A stretch of DNA of 64,000 nucleotides, taken from the IMG/VR virus record IMGVR_UViG_3300031419_000012; one strand, 5' to 3'. The first letter of the stretch is position 1. Each line of letters opens with the position of its first letter. The notes under the pieces are model-generated. The model saw nothing but the letters and a program-made list of their open reading frames with translations. It was not told where the DNA came from and ran no database searches. This document shows, in pieces, positions 7,610 through 12,629 of this stretch. This stretch comes from a virus. The position numbers were made by a program, and so were the translations under genes.

Positions 7610-8008
7610 TCAGCGATAGCTTTTCAAGAGGTGGCTGACCGTATTCGACCAGTTAGTTACGGTGTCACGGGCTAAGCGGTGCACAACCTGGCTGTAAATA
7701 TTAACCGGTAACGGTTCCCCGGCTTCATCCTCAAACACTAACCCTTCCGTCGTTCCTGCTTTACTCATATTCACGCTGTAATCAAACTTGCCTGTTGCCC
7801 CATACATGCCTACCTGCTGCTGAGCCTGCCATGTGAAGCGCACGCCACAACCTTTCCTGAGCTCAAACACAACGGTTCCTTCCACCAGCATGGCTGACTG
7901 CTTCTCACCTGTAGGCAATGACTTATTGCGGCACGACACCGATGTGACCTTGCAGTGATCTGCGCGCCAGCCCAGTAATTCCAGTCCTTTGAGCTTTACC
8001 GTTTCCAT
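7610..8008 (-). CDS. Hypothetical phage protein
   Basis: 132 aa ORF translationally coupled to the upstream gene; no recognised motif. Confidence 0.65.
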   Translation of the reverse strand: METVKLKGLELLGWRADHCKVTSVSCRNKSLPTGEKQSAMLVEGTVVFELRKGCGVRFTWQAQQQVGMYGATGKFDYSVNMSKAGTTEGLVFEDEAGEPLPVNIYSQVVHRLARDTVTNWSNTVSHLLKSYR

Positions 8009-8268
8009 TAAATCAGTCTCCAGTCGCTTGCCAGCAGGTCAGCGGTTACGGGTGTCCAGTCAGCCGTAGTCAGCTGCTCGGTATTAGTCAGTACAAACTG
8101 CGGCATACGCGTGACGGATGCCTGCGGATCGTGGTCAAAAAATCGCGCCGGCACGCCGTACATATCGGTGCCGTTCAGTGGGTGGCGTGTGGTGCCTCTG
8201 TTAAGGCGCAGATGCATACTCTCCCCATGCTTTACGCGCCACTTTAGCGCCGTCAGAGAGCCACACAT
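8008..8268 (-). CDS. Small protein with DUF2829/Tad2-like C-terminal motif
   Basis: Ends WTPVTADLLASDWRLI (W-x-P-x3-D-L-L-A-x-D-W). Start uncertain (8268 or 8217). Confidence 0.55.
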   Translation of the reverse strand: MCGSLTALKWRVKHGESMHLRLNRGTTRHPLNGTDMYGVPARFFDHDPQASVTRMPQFVLTNTEQLTTADWTPVTADLLASDWRLI

Positions 8269-8584
8269 GCGCCACGGCCATAGGTGCGCCCTCTTCTCTG
8301 AACCTCAGCATGCCTTCATCAATCAGCTGCTCGCTGCGCAGGATCAAATCGTTGAGTTTGAGCATGGCCAGACAGGTAGCGTGATTAAGCGACTCCCCGC
8401 GGGCGGTCATCGTCAGTGCGCCTTTGCTTACCGTGGCGGACCAGTCTGCAGTCATCTGTGACTGCTCCGTGACGACAAAGCCCAGGTACTCGAGAACGTT
8501 CAGCAGCGCCATGTAGTCGCCGGTATAGTTACCCTTTGCACCGGCAATCATGGCAATCGTCTCGTTTATTTGTTGATCGTTCAT
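8201..8584 (-). CDS. Hypothetical phage protein, possibly phage ABA-sandwich fold
   Basis: 127 aa in operon; WSATVS...ARGESLNHATCLAMLK pattern recalls ABA-sandwich domains (weak). Confidence 0.6.
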   Translation of the reverse strand: MNDQQINETIAMIAGAKGNYTGDYMALLNVLEYLGFVVTEQSQMTADWSATVSKGALTMTARGESLNHATCLAMLKLNDLILRSEQLIDEGMLRFREEGAPMAVAHVWLSDGAKVARKAWGEYASAP

Positions 8585-8589
8585 CGCTA

Positions 8590-8841
8590 TCAGTAACCCC
8601 GCTTTGTTTTGCGCTGGTGGGCGCTCTTTTTACGCTTCCGTATTGCCTGCCGTTTCCGTTCGCGCTGCTGCTGCGCTTCTTCTACGCTGGTGGCCAGCCG
8701 GTGTATTCCTTCCTCAACGGTCAGCTGCGGGCGCTCCGGCAGCTGCAGCGACCTGGCATGCAGCACGGGAACGGTTGGCGGCCGGCGTGCCAGCCAGGTG
8801 AGACTTCCCATTAATGCGCCCATCAGTGCGATCTTTTTCAT
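8590..8841 (-). CDS. Hypothetical protein with hydrophobic N-terminus and basic tail
   Basis: 83 aa, RBS AGAGAGAG, first gene after the RNA array. Confidence 0.55.
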   Translation of the reverse strand: MKKIALMGALMGSLTWLARRPPTVPVLHARSLQLPERPQLTVEEGIHRLATSVEEAQQQRERKRQAIRKRKKSAHQRKTKRGY

Positions 8842-8858
8842 GCTCTCTCTCTGTCGTG

Positions 8859-8949
8859 CAGGCGTGCAGAATCCCCGGCGATTGCCGGTGATTAAAATTC
8901 ACCTGATTAATTCCGGCGCCGGCGGCGCACGGGGATGGTATGACGCCTG
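8859..8949 (-). ncRNA. Cloverleaf-like structure with a Lys(UUU)-like stem-loop
   Basis: Outer stems CAGGCGT/ACGCCTG and ATCCCC/GGGGAT enclose three hairpins, one being GGTGA-ATTTTAA-TCACC (5 bp stem, 7-nt loop). Confidence 0.4.
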
Positions 8950-8981
8950 TCCCGGCGGCTGGCCGGGTGGCTATGTGGATA

Positions 8982-9083
8982 TTGTGCTGACCGGATTTGA
9001 ACCGGCGACCTCACGCTTGTCCCTTTCACCGCCCTCCGGGCTGAATAAAAGAGCGAACGCTGCTGCCACTGAGCTACAACACA
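8982..9083 (-). ncRNA. tRNA-like RNA with long hairpin inserted in the anticodon loop
   Basis: Acceptor TGTGTTG/CAGCACA, D-region TAGCTCAGTGGCAGCAGCG, variable loop AGGTC, T-arm GCCGG-TTCAAAT-CCGGT. The anticodon region is ~30 nt too long and contains CTTTTA; no CCA encoded. Confidence 0.8.
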
Positions 9084-9341
9084 ACGATAAAAGCCCGTCT
9101 GCCGGCGCTCTTACCTGTTGGGCTGTGTCAGCGAGCCACCAGCTGATCGATAAGCCAGCGGTGACCGGCAAACAGTCCGGCATTCAGCAGCAGGTGAAAC
9201 ATTACAAACTGCATCGCTCTGACTGTTTTGGTATACATGCTGGTGTCCATACTGCTTAAATCCTGATTGACTGACTGAATTGCTTAAATCATGCCTGAAT
9301 TTTCATGTCAGCGCTCATGCCTGCAAATCTGCTTTGCGTTA

Positions 9342-9482
9342 GTGGTGGCCGGTGCCATACCCGGCAAGTAACCTCTCAAGCGACTGGTCAACTCGGTTAC
9401 TGGCGGCTTAAACCCCTATGCGGTGCGATTGATGAAGCGGGGGCCAGTCTTGCGATCGCAGCAGCAACTGCGAATGCACCAC
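9342..9482 (-). ncRNA. c4-like RNA (acceptor-like stem plus terminal T-like arm)
   Basis: GTGGTG/CACCAC closing stem with GCCGG-8nt-CCGGC stacked on it, internal hairpins, and a 5' leader CAGTACTCTTTCCGTTGTG of the kind recalled from c4-type elements. Confidence 0.55.
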
Positions 9483-9676
9483 AACGGAAAGAGTACTGAG
9501 CGGCTAATACGCTTTCCTGTTGGGTTGGTAATACTATTTGCGGCGCTTTTTCTTCACGTCTCGGCGACAGGCTTTAATAACCGTTTCAAAGCCATAAATC
9601 ACCACCAGCGTGTAAATGATAGTGAGAGCCGGGTGTTCTGCGGCAAACGCTAAAATCGGCATATCGTGTCCTGTCA

Positions 9677-9825
9677 GTGAGGGAGCTGTCTCTTCCAGCT
9701 GTCAGAACTAATCGCCCAGGCGTTCAACCTTAGATGGCAGCAATTCTCTGCTGGCTGGATGACATTACGTGTAAACCGGATAACCAATCAGACCAAAGGC
9801 ATAAAAGTCCTAGCTCCGCACTCAC
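9677..9825 (-). ncRNA. Structured RNA with acceptor-like stem plus T-like arm
   Basis: GTGAGTG/CCCTCAC (6 of 7 paired) with AGCTG-GAAGAGA-CAGCT adjacent; contains CTTTTA. Confidence 0.4.
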
Positions 9826-9897
9826 ATATCCCAAGTGACCCACTTCCGGCCACCAGCAGGGTGCGCTGGCTCCAATGCAACTGGCCTGTACAGATAC

Positions 9898-9981
9898 TGG
9901 CAGTAACGGCTGGATTTGAACCAGCGACCTTCCGTACTCCTGAGTAAAAGCCGGACGCTCGTGCCACTGAGCTACGTCACC
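9898..9981 (-). tRNA. Atypical tRNA-Lys(UUU)-like RNA with insertion 3' of the anticodon
   Basis: Acceptor GGTGACG/CGTTACT plus GCCA, D-arm GCTC-AGTGGCAC-GAGC, T-arm GCTGG-TTCAAAT-CCAGC. Anticodon region reads TCCGG-CTTTTA-CTCAGGAGT-ACGGA; 84 nt. Confidence 0.8.
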
Positions 9982-10014
9982 ATTAACGGGTTGCTGTGAT
10001 CGGTTTCCGTTAGC

Positions 10015-10151
10015 GCGATTGTTCAATGAGGCGGGAGTTGAACCCGCTTTGCCTTCGCAGCCCATCGCTGACCGCCTGCGTCAATTCGCCGGCAAGGCTT
10101 TCGCCCCGTGGACTCAGATCCACAACTCCTACGGTGTGTTAAAGCAATCAC
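10015..10151 (-). ncRNA. Enlarged tRNA-like RNA with canonical T-arm
   Basis: Closing stem GTGATTG/CAATCGC, T-arm GCGGG-TTCAACT-CCCGC (10031-10047), several internal hairpins. Confidence 0.55.
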
Positions 10152-10342
10152 CACAACGGCTGAGAGCACTGAAAATCTGCCCGGATAACGGCGTCTTTGC
10201 CAGTCGCCGCCAGTGCTCTCACCGTTGTGTGCTGGTCTTTCCCAGCTGCCACGAACTTTTTTAAGGTCTGCCGCTGACCTTGCCCTGCCACCAGCCAAAA
10301 TAGCCGGTAAGCAGCGCGCCGCCTGGTGTTGACGTGTAGTGC

Positions 10343-10446
10343 ATGGGGGGCTGGTGCCTCCAGCTGTCCGATACGGAACCTACGGACGGGTATACCGTAC
10401 AGGAAATATTATTCCGCCCCGCGTGCGCATAGCCGCATTCCCCCAT
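10343..10446 (-). ncRNA. c4-like RNA
   Basis: ATGGGG/CCCCAT closing stem with GCTGG-AGGCA-CCAGC adjacent; begins GGGGAATGCGGCTATGCGCACGCGG, resembling the recalled c4 antisense RNA motif. Confidence 0.6.
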
Positions 10447-10692
10447 TTGTGAGCGTGCTGTCAGAGGCAGTTACACCCGTCGCCAGGCAGCAAGAGGATG
10501 CCAGCACGCTCACAAATGGCGATCCCTTACGAGGATCAGGCGGGAACATATTTAAGCCTCACGGGGCGTTCTATGCGCGGGGTAGTCCATCGACCGCGTT
10601 CACTGCCGTGACAGGAGGGGCTACATGCCGTTCACCCTACTCATAACACGCCCGGAAAATCTGGAGACTACCGGGAGCGGCCCGTTACGAAC

Positions 10693-10756
10693 TGGTGCAG
10701 GTTGGCGGAATTGAACCGCCGACAGTGGAACACTCGACCGACTGAGCTAAACCTGC
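10693..10756 (-). ncRNA. tRNA-like RNA lacking the anticodon arm
   Basis: Perfect acceptor GCAGGTT/AACCTGC plus ACCA, D-arm GCTC-AGTCGGTC-GAGT, T-arm GGCGG-TTCAATT-CCGCC. Only 11 nt lie between D- and T-arm (about 23 expected); 64 nt. Confidence 0.85.
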
Positions 10757-10938
10757 TGAAATTGTGCCGGTGCATAACCCGGCGCGGACACTTAAGCATC
10801 TGGTCAACCTGTCCGCTTGCGTACACAACAGGGAGAAGGAACTAAACCCTGCCAGATTTGCACTGCGTCTGCCTCGCTGCTGAATCCTCTCTCCGATTCA
10901 GCCGTGAGCACACATCATGCACTCACGGGTAAACCTGA

Positions 10939-10962
10939 AAAAAAGCCCGAAAACTATCGGGC
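10939..10962 (-). terminator. Intrinsic terminator in the leader of the RNA array
   Basis: GCCCGA-TAGTTT-TCGGGC followed by a T7 run on the minus strand. Confidence 0.65.
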
Positions 10963-11108
10963 ATAAATGACTACCTACAGCGCAAAACTCACTCGCAAAT
11001 GAGCTTTGCGTTGTAAAAAATTGCGGATTAAACAATAGGTTAATGAGTAACCCGCTAAATACCAATTTGGATACTTTTCAACGATTATGGTCGTTGCCAG
11101 CGGGTAGA

Positions 11109-11169
11109 AATGTACACAATGAGGAGATCTGAATCAATGAAAATCTAAGATATTTCTTAGATTTTCATT
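11109..11169 (-). promoter_or_regulatory. Sigma70 promoter with adjacent perfect palindromic operator
   Basis: TTGATT-17bp-TACATT with extended -10 TG; AATGAAAATCTAAGA-N4-TCTTAGATTTTCATT at 11136-11169 abuts the -35. Confidence 0.7.
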
Positions 11170-11199
11170 TTTAAAAGGTTGCCGGGTAATTGCGTCAGG

Positions 11200-12489
11200 T
11201 TAGCGACGTTTCAGGTTGCCGTTTTTGATAGGTTCAATATCACCGTTGGTTTTTGCCCAGTTGATGCACCAGCTATTAACTGCCATGCGGATCTCTTCTA
11301 CCGTGGCCTCGCTCAGCCCTTTAACCTTTACCAGTTCCGGCGGTAGCTCACCACCCACCGCTGCCACCGTTTCATACCCGGCCTTAATCAGCGCGTTAAG
11401 CGCACGCGCCGGAATAACCAGCTCAGAGACCGGCGCAGCCTTGCCGTCAATTATGCGCTGATGGAGACGCGGGAAGTCCAGCGCCAGGCGGGTCATGATG
11501 CGTTCATGCAGTTCATCGTTGATGGCCGTGTCCCACATAGGGAGTAAATCAGGCAGGATTCGGAATACCGGATTACCCCATACACCCGGCACGACGTCCA
11601 TTGCCAGCATCATTGCGGTGCGGATCTGATAGTGAAAGTTTGCCGTCTCAATGGACACGTCACGCATGCCGTGAAACACGCTAAGACCGAAGTGGTAATT
11701 GTAGATATAGCAGCCCACGTCGCCGCTGCCGTCCGGCAATGGCAGAAGGAATTGCGCCACATCTTCCTGCCCGTCGTGAAACTCCACGCGCTCTTTGAGA
11801 TTGTTATGCAGGGCAGTCAGTTTAATCAGCTCATTAGCCGTCTCACCGCGCAGGCGGCGCTCTTTACCAACCTCTTTATCTGCAATGTTCAGCTTCTGCT
11901 GCAGCTCAAGTTTCAGCGCGCTCTGTTTTTTACGGTCGGCGCGTAGCTGTGAAATGGTTTTATCGCGCTCCTGCAGATCCAGCGCCAGGCGCTCAGGATT
12001 TTTGCGGCGGTACTGTGCAAACTCATTATTCAGAGTGGTCAGCGCCAGCTGTGCAGTAACCAGCGCGCCTGATGCGCGTTCGTGAGCGTTTTCAGCGTTA
12101 ATAGCGCGGCTGTCAGCCTCAGCAGCGTGCATATTGGCCTGCTGAATAGCTTCGTCGGCGGCGTTCTGCGCATCAAGGCGGATCTGCGTTATCTCCAGGC
12201 TCAGCGCTGAATGGCTGTCCAGCTGCTGCTGTACATGCTCCAGTGCGTCTGCCAGCACGTTATAGGTGTCAGCCTCATGATTAAGGCGCTGCCCGATATC
12301 AATCTGCACCTGCTCCAGCGCGGCCAGGCAGTTATCCAGCAGGCGGTTTTCAAGATCGTCAAGTTTCAGGCGCTTGCGGATAGAGGCCAGCTGGCCGTAA
12401 GCCGCTACAAACGTCTGGTGAAGGACTTCATCGTCAACGGGGCATTCAGGGAGTTGCTGCAGCTTCTGGAGAAGATTTTGAGATGACAT
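11200..12489 (-). CDS. Coiled-coil protein with C-terminal RNAP-alpha-CTD-like HhH domain (P1 PmgS-like, tentative)
   Basis: Long heptad-rich N-terminal half; C-terminal ELVIPARALNALIKAGYETVAAV...LVKVKGLSEATVEEI matches the alpha-CTD pattern. Confidence 0.7.
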   Translation of the reverse strand: MSSQNLLQKLQQLPECPVDDEVLHQTFVAAYGQLASIRKRLKLDDLENRLLDNCLAALEQVQIDIGQRLNHEADTYNVLADALEHVQQQLDSHSALSLEITQIRLDAQNAADEAIQQANMHAAEADSRAINAENAHERASGALVTAQLALTTLNNEFAQYRRKNPERLALDLQERDKTISQLRADRKKQSALKLELQQKLNIADKEVGKERRLRGETANELIKLTALHNNLKERVEFHDGQEDVAQFLLPLPDGSGDVGCYIYNYHFGLSVFHGMRDVSIETANFHYQIRTAMMLAMDVVPGVWGNPVFRILPDLLPMWDTAINDELHERIMTRLALDFPRLHQRIIDGKAAPVSELVIPARALNALIKAGYETVAAVGGELPPELVKVKGLSEATVEEIRMAVNSWCINWAKTNGDIEPIKNGNLKRR

Positions 12490-12547
12490 AATAGATTTCA
12501 GATCCGCTATAAATTTGCGGCAGATAATAACCTGAAATTGACCACTG

Positions 12548-12565
12548 TCTAAGATTTTTCTTAGA
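12548..12565. promoter_or_regulatory. Palindromic operator overlapping a promoter
   Basis: TCTAAGA-TTTT-TCTTAGA, same core as 11136-11169, overlapping a TAGACA -35-like hexamer on the minus strand. Confidence 0.65.
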
Positions 12566-12629
12566 TTTTATTTATCAAATAAGAAGGACTGATTCGGTGG
12601 CAAAGCAGAGCGCCCTGCCACCAGCAGGA

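Follow-up and report, generated by a model that had tools for sequence, protein, structure and literature searches.

A P1-like phage-plasmid of Pantoea, represented by the 64,000-nucleotide virus record IMGVR_UViG_3300031419_000012 from IMG/VR (the whole of this stretch is referred to here as the window), carries a 2.3-kb array of RNA modules on its minus strand. The array is mostly non-coding and forms a chain of conserved folded RNAs, for which an earlier note made from the sequence had described up to eight tRNA-shaped units without a normal anticodon arm, behind an operator-controlled promoter and a leader terminator. The analysis confirmed that the structured RNAs form a conserved array, supported by compensatory changes, and that a palindrome resembling an operator and a leader terminator precede it. 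The array is best explained as the Pantoea counterpart of the leader of the phage P1 ban operon, an early repressor-type transcription unit to which it is homologous.

The nearest relatives of the window are non-mobilizable Pantoea plasmids of ~90 kb and IMG/VR contigs of 87–95 kb. In all of them, the array is flanked on one side by a gene for a 429-amino-acid protein, which has an RNA polymerase alpha C-terminal domain, and on the other by a short row of genes leading to lpa and pacA. In the window, the genes beyond the array are small open reading frames (ORFs), a Tad2-like gene and lpa. The claim that the array holds no credible ORF applies to positions 11100–9663 and to shorter gaps, but two conserved small ORFs of 42 and 40 codons lie inside it, both of them open and conserved in length and sequence. 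The features of the locus are collected in Table 1.

Table 1. Features of the RNA array and its upstream region, listed along the minus strand of the window.
Feature	Position	Strand	Basis
Perfect 15+15-nt palindrome, core TCTAAGA-N4-TCTTAGA (candidate operator)	11136-11169	-	inverted-repeat search; kept in relatives
Putative promoter TTGATT-N17-TACATT	11109-11137	-	read from sequence; conserved in alignment A1
Intrinsic terminator closing ~150-nt leader RNA	10938-10962 (10962-10945 in the scan)	-	terminator scan; stem and U-run invariant in six relatives
DicF-locus-type two-hairpin module, copy 1	10766-10816	-	33 distinct homologues
Unit 1, 64 nt, tRNA-Thr-derived	10693-10756	-	RF00005, 43.6 bits at 10756-10696
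174-nt pseudoknotted RNA	10519-10692	-	alignment A3; begins immediately after unit 1 CCA
Long hairpin, 21-nt arms	10443-10519	-	inverted repeat I1; arms kept, tip variable in A1
Module read as diverged STnc100/PasD-type small RNA	10343-10446	-	alignment A5
GAAAGA-loop hairpin (10246-10231) and long hairpin from ACACAACGG to CCGUUGUG	10152-10246	-	inverted repeat I8
Highly conserved module: GNRA hairpin, covarying hairpin, T-arm-like hairpin (10047-10031)	9990-10139	-	A1; fold
Unit 2, 84 nt, tRNA-like with GCCA	9898-9981	-	RF00005, 52 bits at 9981-9901; ARAGORN; fold
Conserved 42-codon ORF, small membrane-type protein with basic tail	9534-9662	-	annotated in RefSeq relatives
DicF-locus-type two-hairpin module, copy 2	9348-9400	-	repeats D9, D10
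Conserved 40-codon ORF	9128-9250	-	annotated in RefSeq relatives
Unit 3, tRNA-like, without CCA	8979-9085	-	RF00005, 38.7 bits at 9083-8982; alignment A4
Structured 5' region of 83-codon gene	8855-8975	-	fold z = -3.9; alignment of 20 homologues

Structure and descent of the tRNA-derived units

Membership in the Rfam tRNA family RF00005 (gathering threshold 29 bits) was used as the tRNA test, with searches of positions 8000–11500 run to an E-value of 10. Three of the eight claimed units match the family above its gathering score and possess acceptor, D and T arms, while the other five give no match at E up to 10; ARAGORN calls unit 2 only. The description of tRNA-shaped units lacking a normal anticodon arm therefore fits these three, whereas those placed at 10015, 9677 and 9342 are other structured modules by models and folds. 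Likewise, an acceptor-like stem with a stacked arm is present in the three tRNA-derived units, and the stacking seen at 10446–10343 belongs to a module of STnc100/PasD type. That all units are co-oriented, as the earlier note also claimed, is correct, with every one on the minus strand.

Unit 1 folds with a 7-bp acceptor stem, a D arm, a T arm and a 3' ACCA but without an anticodon arm (fold z = -3.2), and the RF00005 alignment leaves 4 nucleotides in its anticodon region against 15 expected. In unit 2, the anticodon region carries a 9-nt insertion and folds as a 10-bp helix closed by a tetraloop. Unit 3 has a 9-bp acceptor-type stem together with D and T arms, and a rod of ~20 bp stands in place of the anticodon arm, where the RF00005 alignment shows a 35-nt insertion. 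Decoding requires a 7-nt anticodon loop on a stem of 5 bp, and none of the three units has one. As the anticodon arm is lost or rebuilt in each, these units cannot decode. A role of unit 2 as an ochre suppressor, considered because its homologues carry UUA, is made unlikely by the weakness of its anticodon stem and by the 10-bp helix into which the arm can fold instead. The D- and T-arm sequences of the units are 73–95% shared (repeat families D1–D3). Units 1 and 2 encode a 3' CCA, preceded by A and G, respectively, and satisfy the predicted features of a ribonuclease (RNase) P substrate, namely a 7+5-bp stack, a UUCAAUU or UUCAAAU T loop, and ACCA or GCCA. Retention of the parts recognised by RNase P and CCA enzymes, proposed in the earlier note for most units, is supported for the tRNA-shaped members; unit 3 has no CCA.

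Comparison with other phages indicates the origin of these units. Unit 1 aligns with P1 trnT before and after the anticodon arm, which it has cleanly lost, unit 2 has the G discriminator, CCA and T loop in common with P1 trnA (tRNA-Asn), and the T arm of unit 3 is nearest that of P1 trnI. In addition, Enterobacter and Leclercia relatives contain a true tRNA-Met within their arrays, and in L069 a true tRNA-Met (71.8 bits) adjoins the 174-nt RNA at the identical ACCA|GUUCG junction that unit 1 forms in the window. Based on these alignments and on the true tRNAs in the arrays of relatives, units 1–3 are remodelled descendants of functional phage tRNA genes. Larger tRNA-like scaffolds of ~127 nt, with a multi-hairpin insert in the anticodon region, occur in L058 (9084–9210) and L042 (3801–3928). 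The insert of the L058 scaffold includes a CAUAACCC hairpin resembling the anticodon arm of initiator tRNA.

The units and their neighbours are maintained by purifying selection. Between the window and a second Pantoea subclade, identity is 97% for unit 1 (to relative L004), 90% for the 174-nt RNA, 88–90% for the STnc100-like unit and 91–92% for 10139–9990; overall, the non-coding modules are 88–97% identical, compared with 62–73% for the flanking protein genes. A covariation check of the kind proposed in the earlier note, made on alignments of homologues, found compensatory pairs in every module tested. Among the 33 pairs of unit 3, those of the acceptor, D and T stems are invariant, and five compensatory pairs all lie in the rod, while the acceptor stem of unit 2 stays paired through one-sided changes. 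The RNA is assigned to the minus strand, as no G·U pairs are seen in the opposite reading. Descendants of the tRNAs of the P1 ban operon have lost decoding and are still under purifying selection.

The 174-nt RNA and the other modules

A widespread module of the array is the 174-nt pseudoknotted RNA that follows unit 1. Across 22 sequences, its helices are 97–100% paired, and shifting the partner columns as a control drops pairing to 34–54%. Compensatory pairs were found in four helices and at one pair of the pseudoknot (CG in 13 sequences, UA in 8 and UG in 1), while the CGCGG/CCGCG pairing of helix 5 is invariant. A covariance model built for this RNA (R1) finds one copy in the window at 178.7 bits. 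The core motif was found in 47 viral and 18 metagenome stretches, and its carriers include temperate phages of 42–48 kb, an E. coli prophage and a sewage phage; it is rare in species genomes (1 of 151), and the model does not find it in P1 at E up to 1. In these phages and the prophage, the motif stands first in the early-left operon, just downstream of a gene of repressor type.

The 174-nt RNA matches no Rfam family at E up to 10, and it was accordingly rejected as a known self-cleaving ribozyme or riboswitch; the topology of the hepatitis delta virus (HDV) ribozyme, compared by eye, did not fit. Literature searches found no description of this RNA. It thus represents a widespread structure supported by covariation, without an Rfam match, that is distributed among P1-like phage-plasmids, 42-kb temperate phages and E. 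coli prophages. In Enterobacter phage-plasmids and 42-kb phages, an RprA-like small RNA (sRNA) is located right behind it (L042 3394–3496; L064 8897–8985; after the core in L050 and L065). This sRNA scores 63 bits, slightly below the Rfam cut-off, and contains the RprA 3' seed region and a terminator.

Further along the array, the sequence at 10446–10343 contains a 7-bp closing stem that directly abuts a 5-bp hairpin with an AGGCA loop. In an alignment of 13 sequences from six lineages, including the L058 member, all 208 of 208 cells of this structure are paired, and 10 of 16 pairs changed on both sides. The Rfam family RF02076 (47 bits) gives no match to the window copy at E up to 10, and its scores for homologues are 48.1 bits in L058, which reaches the gathering score, 36.4 in L043 and 33.4 in P1. 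On the strength of these homologues, the module is read as a diverged prophage sRNA of STnc100/PasD type.

The DicF-locus-type module, present in two copies, begins with a hairpin in which 6 bp close a conserved loop of 21 nt (AGGUUGACCA..UAAGU), and a GCCGG/CCGGC hairpin follows. In the first hairpin, 196 of 198 stem cells are paired among 33 distinct sequences, and four of the six pairs are compensatory. The same hairpin is found within the 'dicF-like region' of P1 and just upstream of a DicF-like match in L058. Compensatory changes are also visible at 10152–10246 in alignment A1, and the junction words of this module recur in P1 and in 42-kb phages. The highly conserved 9990–10139 is not a tRNA by any model, its only match being a chance-level one to the Tymo tRNA-like family (E = 6.5). 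The structure at 8855–8975 adjoins the ribosome-binding site of the 83-codon gene.

Across phages, the order of modules is shuffled, and modules are duplicated inside the array. Because of this shuffling, duplication and recombination, and because no large-RNA family of Rfam matched, the possibility that the conserved block of ~1 kb is one giant RNA of the ROOL or GOLLD type was rejected. Directly after this block, positions 9985–9663 constitute a hotspot at which cargo is swapped: unit 2 with 230 nt in the window, genes for TerB and a DUF3927 protein in L002 and L003, and a gene for an SPFH-type 'serine protease' in L001. Short hairpins (GACAG-stem-GAAAGA or an AGGCA loop on a stem, then ACA..) are repeated at module borders in the Pantoea, P1 and 42-kb phage arrays, and in the window they occur at 10246–10231, 10364–10350 and 9699–9685. 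With a shape like that of boxB, these border hairpins could be a protein or RNase site. In addition, three copies of a 14-nt word (plus strand, ..GAAAATCTG/A) follow one another at an exact spacing of 484 bp (10166–10179, 10650–10663 and 11134–11147), with two of the copies falling within variable hairpin tips; this spacing is probably due to chance.

Upstream of these modules, the palindrome at the head of the locus is a candidate operator, or else a weak terminator of the upstream gene. Its core is found both before the array (11141–11164) and before the 429-amino-acid protein gene (12546–12568). The presence of the same palindrome at the two sites suggests that one repressor controls both the array and the gene for the alpha-C-terminal-domain-like protein. 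The palindrome is unlike the C1 operator of P1. The terminator that the earlier note had placed before the array was identified at 10962–10945, and three hairpin-plus-U-run sites are present inside the leader. Complementarity between leader and array, as in the seqA/B/C elements of P4, was also considered; it is limited to duplicated hairpin strands (I2 and I5), with no convincing conserved antisense pair. At the other end of the locus, the window (8008–8584, minus strand) holds a homologue of a 194-amino-acid 'MW1434 family' protein of relatives, broken into two overlapping frames of 127 (8584–8201) and 86 amino acids (8268–8008), with its C-terminal part corresponding to a Tad2-like (Thoeris anti-defence 2) domain. 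The split near 8210–8268 is a frameshift or a sequencing error.

Possible functions of the array

RNase P requires only the stack of acceptor and T stems together with RCCA. The tRNA-derived units retain the parts used by RNase P and CCA enzymes, sit at module borders, and replace the true tRNAs found there in relatives, which argues for a role as handles. Our preferred reading, to which we give an even chance, is that the array is a processed polycistronic non-coding RNA in which the tRNA-like units act as cutting and stabilising handles for neighbouring small RNAs. Transcription would read through the leader terminator to give a long RNA, in which RNase P would cut each tRNA-like unit at its 5' side and RNase E or exonucleases would act on the 3' side. 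Cutting would free and stabilise the neighbours of the units, including the 174-nt RNA, the STnc100-like sRNA, the DicF-locus-type hairpin modules and downstream mRNAs, and the tRNA-like units themselves would accumulate as stable RNAs.

Several observations weigh against this proposal. A strict sigma-70 scan passes no promoter at the array, where only TTGATT-N17-TACATT is present. Among sequencing runs, none recorded as RNA contained the locus, and four runs that were compared with it consisted of contigs, probably of DNA, and showed no ends. The strong terminator upstream of the array means that read-through must be assumed. Unit 2 occurs only in subclade 1 and is missing from another subclade, so that it is dispensable for the operon. 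Lastly, a role as punctuation alone explains neither the retention of the D arm nor the long rod of unit 3 that compensatory change has kept.

Alternatively, the modules may work in cis, affecting the transcript of which they are part by attenuation, by read-through of the terminator, or by control of the stability and translation of the downstream small genes, the Tad2-like gene and lpa, and not as free RNAs. Their position is that of nut or put elements, since they follow the early promoter of the 42-kb phages and, in P1, Pban, and the three hairpin-plus-U-run sites in the leader and the structure abutting the ribosome-binding site of the 83-codon gene are consistent with such a leader. However, the shuffling of module order between phages and the duplication of modules within the array are not expected of it, the 174-nt RNA lies downstream of the terminator here, and in relatives the array modules are joined with sRNA parts that end in terminators (RprA-like and STnc100 units), a combination that fits free-standing RNAs better. 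We therefore regard a purely cis-acting leader as unlikely, though worth keeping in view.

Equally doubtful in our estimate is a role of the array in anti-defence, in which the phage, as soon as lytic growth begins, would make the tRNA-like bodies and a Lys-type hairpin as decoys that bind and titrate, or compete uncleavably for, tRNA-targeting nucleases or tRNA-modifying toxins (RloC, PrrC, PARIS AriB and acceptor-end toxins). The earlier note had based a similar proposal on a recurrent Lys(UUU)-type loop sequence, (C/A)UUUUA. This motif is indeed enriched on the array strand, with six copies against ~0.9 expected from its window-wide density, but only two copies lie at a tRNA anticodon position, and one is in the loop of a Lys-like hairpin. 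The latter hairpin (8903–8887), which is part of the structured 5' region of the 83-codon gene, has a stem and UUUAA loop that copy the anticodon arm of the host tRNA-Lys at 12 specified bases, and it is the sole match to the pattern TGANTTTTAATCA in the 64 kb of the window. Its UUUAA core is kept across subclades, yet position 33 varies and the stem shows no compensatory change, and tRNA-Lys was chosen after the fact among ~40 tRNA species.

Elsewhere in the array, the Lys signal is not conserved. The loop of unit 2 reads CUUUUAC in the window only and CUUUAAC in the four other distinct homologues, giving a UUA anticodon in four of five distinct copies. In unit 3, CUUUUA is base-paired inside a helix and is replaced by GUUUCAUUG in the other subclade. 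Units 1 and 2, moreover, derive from Thr- and Asn-type tRNAs, and a tRNA-Lys theme of the array as a whole is weakly supported. Also in favour of decoys are the early, promoter-proximal position of the array, the Tad2-like anti-defence domain encoded, though split by a frameshift here, in the same operon, and the CAUAACCC-containing insert in the tRNA-like scaffold of L058. Furthermore, a sequenced strain of Pantoea agglomerans carries RloC (PMC10999674). A broader version of this proposal is that enterobacterial temperate phages and phage-plasmids carry an early RNA arsenal, in which remodelled tRNA bodies and copied anticodon arms, here of tRNA-Lys, neutralise tRNA-targeting immune nucleases and toxins, with the 174-nt RNA as a further effector; this is more speculative, and we hold it to be less probable again. 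Literature searches returned nothing specific on tRNA-like decoys, on this array, or on anticodon-less tRNA descendants in P1-like elements.

The remaining explanation, that the units have no function and are either tRNA pseudogenes in decay or pieces of tRNA that recombination of cassettes has left behind, is very improbable and largely refuted. In its favour, P1 has intact versions of the tRNA genes from which the units derive, the point at which homology between subclades ends is exactly beside unit 2, where cargo genes are swapped, and unit 1 exists as two exchangeable types (61–64 nt and 73 nt). However, neutral decay is excluded by the near-identity of unit 1 between subclades whose neighbouring genes have diverged, by the invariant stems and compensated new rod of unit 3, and by the one-sided changes through which pairing in the unit 2 acceptor stem is preserved, and the units are full top halves of tRNAs instead of 3' fragments of the att type.

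The units also bear on the reasons for which phages keep tRNA genes. These genes are usually explained by the supply of codons or by the replacement of host tRNAs that defences have cut. As the units have lost decoding and retained purifying selection, the top half of the tRNA has a second selectable use in phages. An inducible phage-plasmid would offer a cheap and concrete system for studying the construction and processing of non-coding RNA operons by phages.

Relation to known RNA systems

The tRNA-like module of YrlA, a bacterial Y RNA-like RNA (RF02553), likewise has D, T and acceptor elements joined to a long helix at the place of the anticodon arm, as in unit 3. However, RF02553 has no match in the window, the unit 3 RNA ends at its acceptor stem and not at the long helix, and neither rsr nor rtcB is nearby.

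Among phage regulatory RNAs, the C4 RNA of P1 and P7 and the CI RNA of P4 are cut from longer transcripts by RNase P, and tRNA-linked small RNAs of viruses include the species 1 and 2 RNAs of T4 and the tRNA-miRNA units of murine gammaherpesvirus 68 (MHV68). In these systems, a tRNA-like fold excises and stabilises non-tRNA RNAs from a precursor, as we infer for the array. The units of the window differ in that they truly descend from tRNAs, whose D and T arms they possess, and in having no match to the C4 model. The suggestion in the earlier note that they are c4-like regulators was consequently abandoned, as RF01695 detects only the true C4 antisense RNA of the window (25262–25175, 84 bits) and none in 8000–11500 at E up to 10. 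The sequence of this C4 RNA shows no obvious likeness to the array.

STnc100/PasD, DicF and the tRNAs of the P1 ban operon are already known. With STnc100/PasD (RF02076; bioRxiv 10.64898/2026.05.13.724894), the module at 10446–10343 shares the GUGAAUGCGGCU..GCGCACGCGG box, the GGAGGCACC hairpin and the closing stem that are common to the L058, L043 and P1 copies. In contrast, the window copy has no Rfam score and sits inside the array, not beside Q or lysis genes. The dicBF operon of the Qin prophage, which contains the DicF locus (RF00039), resembles the array in that its sRNAs are cut from a long, repressor-controlled early transcript, although processing in the window is presumed. The position of the two-hairpin module, directly upstream of the DicF-like match in L058 and inside the 'dicF-like region' of P1, adds to this likeness, but the window has no DicF seed and no RF00039 match.

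The closest counterpart is the leader of the P1 ban operon (NC_005856). There, the C1-controlled promoter Pban with its operator Op72 is followed by the 'dicF-like region' ending in a terminator, trnA (Asn), trnT (Thr), an STnc100-like stretch, tciA (TerB), tciB, tciC, trnI and ban. In both loci, an early promoter bearing an operator precedes a short leader ended by a terminator, after which non-coding RNA genes extend over a long distance. The hairpin with the AGGUUGACCA loop, the junction words ACAACAGG/ACAACGG and an STnc100-like unit are common to the two, and each has genes of tRNA type that trace back to Thr, Asn and Ile tRNAs. Where homology breaks beside unit 2, relatives L002 and L003 carry TerB and DUF3927 genes at the place matching that in P1. 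The differences lie in module order, in the operator sequence, in the 174-nt pseudoknotted RNA, which P1 does not have, and in the downstream genes, which in the window are the small ORFs, the Tad2-like gene and lpa, not ban. Moreover, the three tRNAs of P1 are canonical (65–75 bits), whereas those of the window cannot decode. Through these correspondences, the locus ties the long-unexplained 'dicF-like region' of P1 to the STnc100/PasD and DicF families of sRNAs.

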